Shown here one piece after another: positions 22,501 to 23,127 of a DNA stretch of 26,278 bases (its first letter is position 1; each line of letters starts with the position of its first letter). Below the pieces are notes generated by a model. That model saw only the letters and a program-made list of their open reading frames with translations. It made no database searches and was not told the DNA's origin. This stretch comes from a virus. The stretch lies in the UHGV virus genome UHGV-0200387. One strand, 5' to 3'. The position numbers and the translations under genes were made by a program.

Positions 22501-22794
22501 TGTTGGCTCCGTTTATCCGTTAAAAGGGATATCAGTTAAGTTATCCCGTGTAGGGTATAAGCCATTGTCGAGACCACTCATTGAATGTCCTCTGCAATAA
22601 CCGATGTCTTTCCATCAGTCCGCCACCACAAAGAATCTTTTTTGCCATAAGGCAGGAGGTTCATCTTTCAGTGGCTGCCAGTGTTATTTCCCCACTTACT
22701 GGCTTGGGTTGTTTCGCTGTACTGCCGTAACTGGTTGCCAAGAATAAATTCTGGTTTCATTATCAAGCCCACCCGTAGATAGGCTTTGTAATGG

Positions 22795-23082
22795 CTACTT
22801 CTTCAGAACTGATTCGATGAATTCACGTCGGGGATGACGATAGTTCAGAATATCTTCTGGCATCCTCATAAAGCGGTTGTTGCCGTCTTTGGCAGTAACA
22901 AAACAGCTGTGAACTCCGCAGACATCCGTTTTGATTGTGTCGCTATACTCAAAAAGCAACTGAGCCATCTTCTCTTGCCATTCTGGCGGCATAGCCTCCA
23001 TGAATACTCGCGGCATCACGCAGAACGGCGCATGCGTAAGACCAAACCACAGTTGCAGGTCTTTACGATATTCTTCATCCAT
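22795..23082 (-). CDS. hypothetical 95-aa protein with 4 Cys and several His
   Basis: ATG 23082 with AAAGGTAAAG upstream. Lies between the lysis-cassette terminator and a 294-bp ORF-free spacer. No motif I can name. Confidence 0.5.
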   Translation of the reverse strand: MDEEYRKDLQLWFGLTHAPFCVMPRVFMEAMPPEWQEKMAQLLFEYSDTIKTDVCGVHSCFVTAKDGNNRFMRMPEDILNYRHPRREFIESVLKK

Positions 23083-23100
23083 CGTCTTTACCTTTGTTGC

Positions 23101-23127
23101 AATAAAAAGCCCCGCTACTGCGAGGCT
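23101..23127 (-). terminator. intrinsic terminator at the end of the lysis cassette
   Basis: On the minus strand: 8-bp stem AGCCUCGC/GCGGGGCU (one G-U pair), loop AGUA, then UUUUUAUU. The stem overlaps the last Rz codons and stop. Confidence 0.65.

Follow-up and report, generated by a model that had tools for sequence, protein, structure and literature searches.

What is the nature of a 294-bp stretch without any sizeable open reading frame (ORF) in the late operon of a P22-like prophage? The stretch lies at 22501–22794 of UHGV-0200387, a virus genome of 26,278 nt presented as one strand and referred to here, at its full length, as the window. Every gene of the interval that contains it (22501–23127) is on the minus strand, and this spacer separates the gene for a 95-amino-acid (aa) protein, just behind the lysis cassette, from a homologue of P22 orf80, which precedes the terminase genes. 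A preliminary description, made from the sequence alone, had proposed that the spacer is a decayed gene or a structured leader, in a region where a pac or cos-proximal element would be expected. The gap at 22794–22501 is as that description had it, with sense ORFs of at most 35 aa and antisense ORFs of at most 49 aa, and an ORF-free length of 294 bp is by itself statistically unremarkable. The reading favoured here, with a probability of about 0.6, is that the spacer is a conserved, modular and structured non-coding part of the late mRNA, which is the counterpart of the P22 small RNA P22G and also acts as a recombination joint.

The spacer aligns with 207 phage records at 90–98% identity, mostly at places with no annotated feature, and is found both in P22-like pac phages (HF4s, HK620, Sf6, P22 and ST64T) and in HK022-like cos siphoviruses (HK022, HK140, mEp234 and HK446). 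Its anatomy, established from 120 IMG/VR loci together with reference phages, centres on a core of about 125 nt that hardly varies. Of 5426 complete E. coli genomes, 1120 (~21%) carry this core, nearly always at an identity of at least 95% and almost never with an annotation. In a collection with one genome per species it turned up in E. coli, in Shimwellia and in contigs from metagenome-assembled genomes that are probably misbinned, and nowhere else apart from six chance matches; this species-level scan, in which diverged copies were sought for covariation, gave near-identical copies only. The core is likewise absent from the loci of 95-aa homologues in Yersinia, Erwinia and Enterobacter. Across 22 phages of the same architecture, which underlie all diversity figures given here, the core has a nucleotide diversity of 0.021 and the leader behind it one of 0.018; in the adjacent orf80, whose first 30 nt are invariant, second codon positions reach 0.037 and third positions 0.156. 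It is well supported that the spacer is an uninterrupted P22-type leader between the lysis/moron genes and orf80. Two outcomes had been named beforehand as speaking against the preliminary description, namely that the spacer would align with intergenic DNA conserved among P22-like phages and that the 95-aa protein would match a well-known phage protein; the former is what was found, the latter is not. Roughly one complete E. coli genome in five, along with P22, Sf6, HK620 and HK022, is shown by this distribution to carry an almost invariant block of 125 nt that has escaped annotation and is absent from Rfam.

Searching the literature by words gave nothing on the spacer, whereas a search by RNA sequence gave the report of P22G, a 204-nt sense-strand small non-coding RNA (sncRNA) of P22 described as “downstream of ORF201, no known function” (Naaz et al. 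2026, PMC13397905). Ten loci, P22G among them, hold 99.8% of the P22-specific small-RNA reads from infected Salmonella; P22G was seen in infected cells only, occurs in vesicles as well, and has been suggested by its authors to play a regulatory role, either IsrK-like on the downstream gene or in trans (PMC13397905). Nucleotides 59–204 of P22G match window positions 22728–22585 at 95.9% identity over 146 nt (E = 2e-64), and the counterpart of P22G comprises the core and the 5′ arm of the next hairpin, H3 (22585–22602). Like P22G, the spacer lies on the late-gene strand between the lysis cassette and orf80. The first 58 nt of P22G, which consist of the 3′ end of rha and a further 22 nt, are absent from the window, where, unlike in P22G, a different gene is followed by a hairpin (H1) and a linker. 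Given the 95.9% identity, the core would correspond to an RNA that accumulates in vivo, as reported for P22 only. In turn, the conservation of the core gives the 2026 observation of P22G an evolutionary footing.

The match to P22G raises the possibility that the core is a true small regulatory RNA (sRNA), primary or matured, which acts in trans or, in the manner of IsrK, on the downstream gene. Such a role would agree with the place of P22G among so few discrete, highly covered loci and with its presence in vesicles, with the sharp ends of the near-invariant core, and with a single-stranded block of ~20 nt (GAAAUAACACYGGCAGCC) that is common to the core and to Proteo-phage-1 RNAs. However, a promoter scan found no sigma-70-like promoter on the sense strand, no intrinsic terminator flanks the core, and P22G itself begins inside the rha coding sequence. 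A search for stretches of 12 nt or more elsewhere in the window that are complementary to the spacer came up empty, and P22G is not known to have a target. Transcript maps of BTP1, a P22-like prophage, list no sRNA at this place in lysogens. A true sRNA is an unlikely reading. A stable fragment of late mRNA is at least as likely as an independent sRNA for P22G, since P22G was not checked by reverse-transcription PCR (RT-PCR), starts inside rha, and has sister RNAs that fall in coding regions; the data suggest that several of the RNAs in PMC13397905 are stable late-mRNA fragments. Partial homologues of P22H and P22I from that study occur at 18094–18128 and 17192–17243 of the window, within the 3′ ends of coding genes and just upstream of the portal and coat genes.

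Folding sets the two strands apart. As a 306-nt leader, the sense RNA folds with z = -4.57, a value reached by none of 100 shuffles (0/100), compared with z = -1.64 for the antisense strand, and the sense fold contains many G-U pairs. The clearest signs of selection on pairing come from H3, in which 98.9% of cells are paired over 15 pairs, as against 27–59% in slid controls. Three of its pairs have changed on both sides (G-C to A-U), mostly through one split between two lineages that amounts to few independent events, and seven have changed on one side with pairing kept, several of them via G-U. The 41 versions of H1 point the same way: most variants place C or U opposite G, or change G to A opposite U, and pairing is for that reason kept only in the sense RNA. 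Between H1 and the core lies a variable linker, which carries a 65-nt insert in some phages. Within the core, the 49 paired columns hold 9 minor alleles and the 76 unpaired ones 202, and the recurrent polymorphisms all fall in predicted loops. The hairpin and T-run noticed earlier at 22526–22548 are real and correspond to the weak hairpin H4 (GGGAUA...UAUCCC followed by UUUU, 22547–22522), which shows no compensatory changes and is absent from ST64T-type leaders. With its sense-specific hairpins, the compensatory changes in H3 and the P22G counterpart (PMC13397905), the structured leader of the preliminary description has thus gained support, and the structure prediction that it called for gave a fold beyond that of shuffled sequences. 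An internal loop of the core hairpin Hb (22652–22648) reads CCUCC, resembling an anti-Shine-Dalgarno sequence, and the loop of the neighbouring Ha (22693–22690) reads GGGG; a loop–loop contact between the two, or a contact with the ribosome, is conceivable.

Several observations weigh against a structured, functional leader with P22G as its counterpart. P22G was defined from read coverage in one small-RNA-seq study, its ends are unmapped, and it lies outside the two RNAs that were checked by RT-PCR (PMC13397905); two other “sncRNAs” of the same study sit inside coding regions. In Stx2 phages H1 runs straight into the 3′ part of H3 and then H4 with no core in between, so that the core is dispensable there. 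The low diversity could stem from recent recombinational spread instead of selection, and part of the invariance is imposed by the retrieval of the sequences, as 20 columns of the core are fixed by the 20-mer that was used to fetch them. The core is too invariant for covariation and shows no compensatory change; by itself it folds only modestly (z about -1.8), to a roughly equal extent on both strands, and a recurrent U-to-C variant (CACCGGCAGCC) breaks one pair of Ha without compensation.

Could the spacer be coding after all? The most promising ORF is an antisense, cysteine-rich one of 47 aa at 22604–22747 on the plus strand, whose start coincides with the 3′ edge of the core and which spans the core, is intact in ~88 of 97 distinct sequences, and contains the commonest polymorphism at a synonymous position; the sense micro-ORFs of 28–35 aa are further candidates. 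Yet the 58 substitution variants of the core include 13–17 synonymous changes per frame in all six frames, where 20–26% are expected, and the antisense frame, with 14 synonymous and 41 non-synonymous changes, behaves as chance would have it and like the other frames. Diversity in the core shows no three-base periodicity across the 22 phages. The antisense ORF is interrupted by T/A-run indels and stop codons in ~9 sequences, its C-terminus differs with each upstream context, it has no usable ribosome-binding site as judged from the sequence, and it matches no Pfam or PHROG family, while the sense micro-ORFs are broken by A5/A6/A7 indels and lost start codons. Searches with the small spacer ORFs gave no match in Pfam and a single borderline one in PHROGs (a 49-aa antisense ORF, E = 0.008). 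A small protein encoded here is accordingly very improbable.

Nor does the spacer look like the remains of a gene such as rha, or like a pac or cos-proximal packaging signal. P22 does carry rha and orf80 between Rz and gene 3, as had been pointed out, so the position matches that of rha, and the terminase genes follow immediately downstream. A translated alignment to the rha family had been proposed as a check; tblastn with the Rha proteins of P22 and JEP4 gave nothing in the spacer below E = 0.49, and nothing was found there with Rha, KilA-N, HkbL, Sf6 gp65 or gp66. All that tblastn with the cargo proteins did pick up was P22 orf25 and the N-terminal extension of ST64T Orf-118, both of them spurious gene calls made on this same DNA. 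A decayed gene is thus not supported, as the spacer resembles neither Rha nor the other cargo proteins, synonymous changes are not in excess and its ORFs are broken; moreover, the core lies downstream of an intact rha in P22, and its sequence is conserved, not decaying. The pac site of P22 is located inside gene 3. A packaging site is ruled out because the same block is common to pac phages (P22, Sf6, HK620) and cos phages (HK022, HK140, mEp234). Remnant and packaging signal together are close to refuted.

A non-coding structured leader also allows gene calls in reference phages to be corrected. ST64T Orf-118 (locus L005, 1648–2004) consists of 38 spurious codons fused in frame to the 80-aa DUF2560 gene, P22 orf25 (locus L004, 1330–1407) lies in H3, and HF4s g59 (locus L001, 728–1072) has been started upstream of the terminator that precedes the 95-aa gene.

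The modular side of the spacer becomes apparent at its joints. The core occurs in at least four alternative upstream and at least five downstream contexts, all of them joined at the same nucleotides, and H1 is fused to at least eight different upstream genes. The genes exchanged upstream include rha, KilA-N and the 95-aa gene. Downstream, P22 carries an insert of ~630 bp after H3 with the antisense pid moron, its promoter and its terminator, whereas the window lacks pid; in Sf6, gene 66 is inserted between the core and H3. The rha–orf80 region of P22 and BTP1 has been described as the “pid ORFan moron locus” (Cenens 2013; Wolput 2022, PMC8835761), and this locus has the same flanks as the window, with the core after the upstream gene and H3 and the leader before orf80. 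The points at which lambdoid phages trade pid and other accessory genes are marked by these fixed joints.

Such mosaicism invites an explanation at the level of DNA alone, in which the spacer is a boundary or linker maintained by homologous exchange of accessory genes and its RNA has no function of its own. The mosaic flanks, with many alternative cargo genes at fixed points, are what a linker would produce, the block is common to phages with unrelated head and packaging modules, and the Sf6 record annotates “boundary sequences” nearby. The compensatory and G-U-preserving changes in H3 and H1, however, point to selection on the sense RNA, and the strands differ strongly in fold energy. For a linker, in addition, it would suffice that copies are similar; they would have no need to be near-invariant and to vary less than second codon positions do. 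That the spacer acts purely as a DNA linker is consequently quite improbable, more so than that the core is an sRNA.

For the structured leader, a working mechanism can be proposed, although as a whole, with its elements of processing, shielding, translation tuning and recombination joints, it is tentative and falls somewhat short of even odds. The long late transcript would be cut in the region of the spacer, and the hairpins would shield the flanking gene segments from exonucleases and leave the compact core as a stable fragment. Structures around the start of orf80 may set the translation level of orf80 and of the terminase genes. The conserved blocks would double as joints for homologous recombination, between which accessory genes are exchanged (pid in P22 and gene 66 in Sf6, with rha, KilA-N or the 95-aa gene upstream).

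Upstream of the spacer, the strong terminator over the Rz stop codon that was noted at the outset is real. It has the form of an intrinsic terminator, with a G+C-rich stem-loop (GAGCCUCGC-AGUA-GCGGGGCUU) directly before a U-tract on the transcribed strand, and folds at a free energy (dG) of -16.5 kcal/mol (z = -3.6), which none of 200 shuffles equalled (0/200). Its 5′ arm is formed by the last codons of Rz, whose stop codon (TAG) lies inside the loop; a simple consensus terminator scan did not list it. The same hairpin and ribosome-binding region recur upstream of distant 95-aa homologues at two other loci (L131 and L134), and the stem of the terminator is where homology with phage HF4s sets in, which together make the terminator part of the cassette of the 95-aa gene. 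It would be read through only by a Q-modified, terminator-resistant RNA polymerase; as only such a polymerase would pass, the genes behind it are likely to be strictly late.

The 95-aa ORF, found where it had been placed (23082–22795), is by its sequence a real gene of a large, uncharacterised phage family, and it does not appear to encode a metal-binding protein. Its profile match to phrog_3527, an uncharacterised phage family, covers the full length (residues 1–95), and searches of Pfam, NCBIfam, PADLOC and PDB sequences gave no match. The homology search suggested for it has thus recovered a conserved family, though not a well-known one. Close homologues of 94–105 aa fall into 43 clusters from Salmonella, E. 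coli, Enterobacter, Klebsiella, Yersinia and Erwinia, and a full HMMER scan found 1393 cluster representatives (at 50% identity) with the domain, which measures ~88 aa and makes up either a whole protein or the C-terminal part of one of 120–490 aa. These longer relatives have no informative N-terminal or partner domains. In every context read, and with any terminase type, the gene follows the spanin gene directly and precedes the head genes.

The four cysteines and C-x32-C-x4-C spacing first ascribed to the protein are wrong: there are three (C21, C55 and C60), spaced C-x33-C-x4-C. Because cysteines and histidines are not conserved among the homologues, with C21 replaced by L/A/V, C55 by F/Y, and H17 and H58 variable, the proposed metal site is not supported. 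The invariant residues are instead W12, F13, P24, R25, W35, Y81 and P84. AlphaFold (AF2) with a deep alignment gives a confident, mostly helical model (predicted local distance difference test, pLDDT, 85), whereas a shallow alignment gave an unusable one (pLDDT 56). Foldseek found no neighbours of the model in the PDB, and its only relatives are uncharacterised viral proteins; the protein marks a large phage domain family (~1400 clusters) with no known fold neighbour. The ribosome-binding region AGGTAAAGACGATG (window 23083–23100) is conserved at the DNA level even before the Yersinia and Erwinia homologues, which are ~70% identical in protein, as seen upstream of position 4001 in loci L129, L131, L132 and L134.

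The window contains a prophage of the P22-like (Lederbergvirus) kind, next to which lies a tRNA-Arg(CCU) gene (Table 1 gives its late genes and the features of the spacer). The tRNA gene (3023–3097) adjoins a tyrosine integrase gene (3223–4416), and this neighbourhood is likely to be the integration site of the prophage, which fills most of the window. On the opposite strand, just upstream of the holin gene, lies a DUF2441 gene (24661–25191, plus strand) that may represent a moron, with the late promoter region on one side and the lysis cassette on the other. The gene downstream of the spacer had been taken for an orf80 homologue, and its DUF2560 match, followed by the small terminase gene, bears this out.

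Table 1. Late genes, terminator and spacer features of the window, in the order of late transcription.
Feature	Position	Strand	Evidence or remarks
Holin gene	24431-24090	-	first in the late minus-strand gene order
Lysozyme gene	24115-23663	-	between holin and Rz
Rz-like i-spanin gene	23115-23666	-	phrog_214 Rz-like spanin, E = 2e-54; ORF list
Rz1 gene	23225-23422		embedded in Rz gene
Intrinsic terminator	23101-23128	-	9-bp G+C-rich stem, AGUA loop, then UUUUAUU
Gene for 95-aa protein	22795-23082	-	phrog_3527, E = 1.6e-54
H1 hairpin, AAGCCUAUC-UACG-GGUGGGCUU	22765-22786	-	9 bp, UNCG-type loop, starts 8 nt past the 95-aa stop
Core, ~125 nt	22603-22728	-	near-invariant, ACGGCAG to GACAUC
Ha hairpin	22703-22677	-	
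Hb hairpin	22675-22622	-	
Hc hairpin	22619-22600	-	
H3 hairpin	22560-22602	-	15 bp, covariation
H4 weak hairpin, GGGAUA...UAUCCC + UUUU	22522-22547	-	folds; conserved
Shine-Dalgarno GGAG and AUG of orf80	22498-22510	-	predicted inside a local stem-loop
orf80 homologue, 80 aa (DUF2560)	22258-22500	-	PF10834, E = 1e-43
Small terminase gene (gp3)	21734-22228	-	PF16677 and phrog_606; next after orf80
Large terminase gene	21756-20257	-	

Among known RNA classes, the nearest likeness is to Proteo-phage-1 (RF03044). At gathering thresholds Rfam recovers only the host tRNA in the window; relaxed scans add a single weak lead, a score of 16.8 bits for the core against Proteo-phage-1 (E = 1.1 to 3.4), where the threshold is 42 and true members score 52–82 bits. 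The two share a 5′ CCCAAG and a 3′ single-stranded tail, GAAAUAACAC(U/C)GGCAGCC, followed by a hairpin. The Proteo-phage-1 tail AAaAACaCCGGCAGCC has its equivalent in GAAAUAACACUGGCAGCC at 22690–22673, and some relatives of the core carry exactly CCGGCAGCC. A profile (nhmmer) of 28 real members matches the core alone in the 26-kb window (E = 0.003), and the reciprocal search confines the likeness to ~20 nt. Both Proteo-phage-1 hairpins (CCAGG...CCUGG, and one with a GAUAAGCCGG loop) are missing from the core, in which 54 model positions are reduced to 12 nt, and with a score so far below the threshold the core was rejected as a member, the relation being one of resemblance only. Both RNAs are found in late operons of lambdoid-type phages, and in Pseudomonas-like phages real Proteo-phage-1 sits where a late leader would, after the nin/Q region and ahead of the holin, the order being NinB, NinG, a 244-aa gene, the motif, holin and terminase; this position in late-operon leaders may hint at the function of Proteo-phage-1. 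True Proteo-phage-1 was located in loci L169 (5758–5837), L138, L146 and L153 (808–885), sometimes with a tRNA ~120 nt downstream. Separately, one IMG/VR contig with the core (L140) carries adjacent Rfam matches to isrK and C4 antisense RNA (1745–1933), ~11 kb from the core. On a further reading, the core would be more than a stable piece of mRNA: it would function as a structured RNA and represent a class not described before, found in lambdoid phages of enterobacteria and perhaps a reduced form of Proteo-phage-1. It would act on late expression or on the host (for example through RNA polymerase or the ribosome via the CCUCC loop, or as a decoy against a defence system), and its edges would mark an accessory-gene slot; this is doubtful, about as much so as the sRNA.

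Two other kinds of known element resemble the structured late leader in part. Stabiliser hairpins and 3′ barriers of the repetitive extragenic palindrome (REP) type occur in polycistronic mRNAs, where they likewise form stable hairpins without a U-tract right after stop codons. The stop-adjacent hairpins seen here are H1, after the 95-aa gene, and H3, after gene 66 in Sf6-type phages; unlike REP elements, the spacer hairpins are not repeated around the genome, and a protective role may be proposed for them by analogy. The lambdoid boundary or linker sequences (“bsq” in the Sf6 record) are also short conserved blocks at the joints between mosaic modules, from which the core differs in its length of ~125 nt, much greater than that of the bsq joints, and in the signs of selection for RNA structure in its neighbours.

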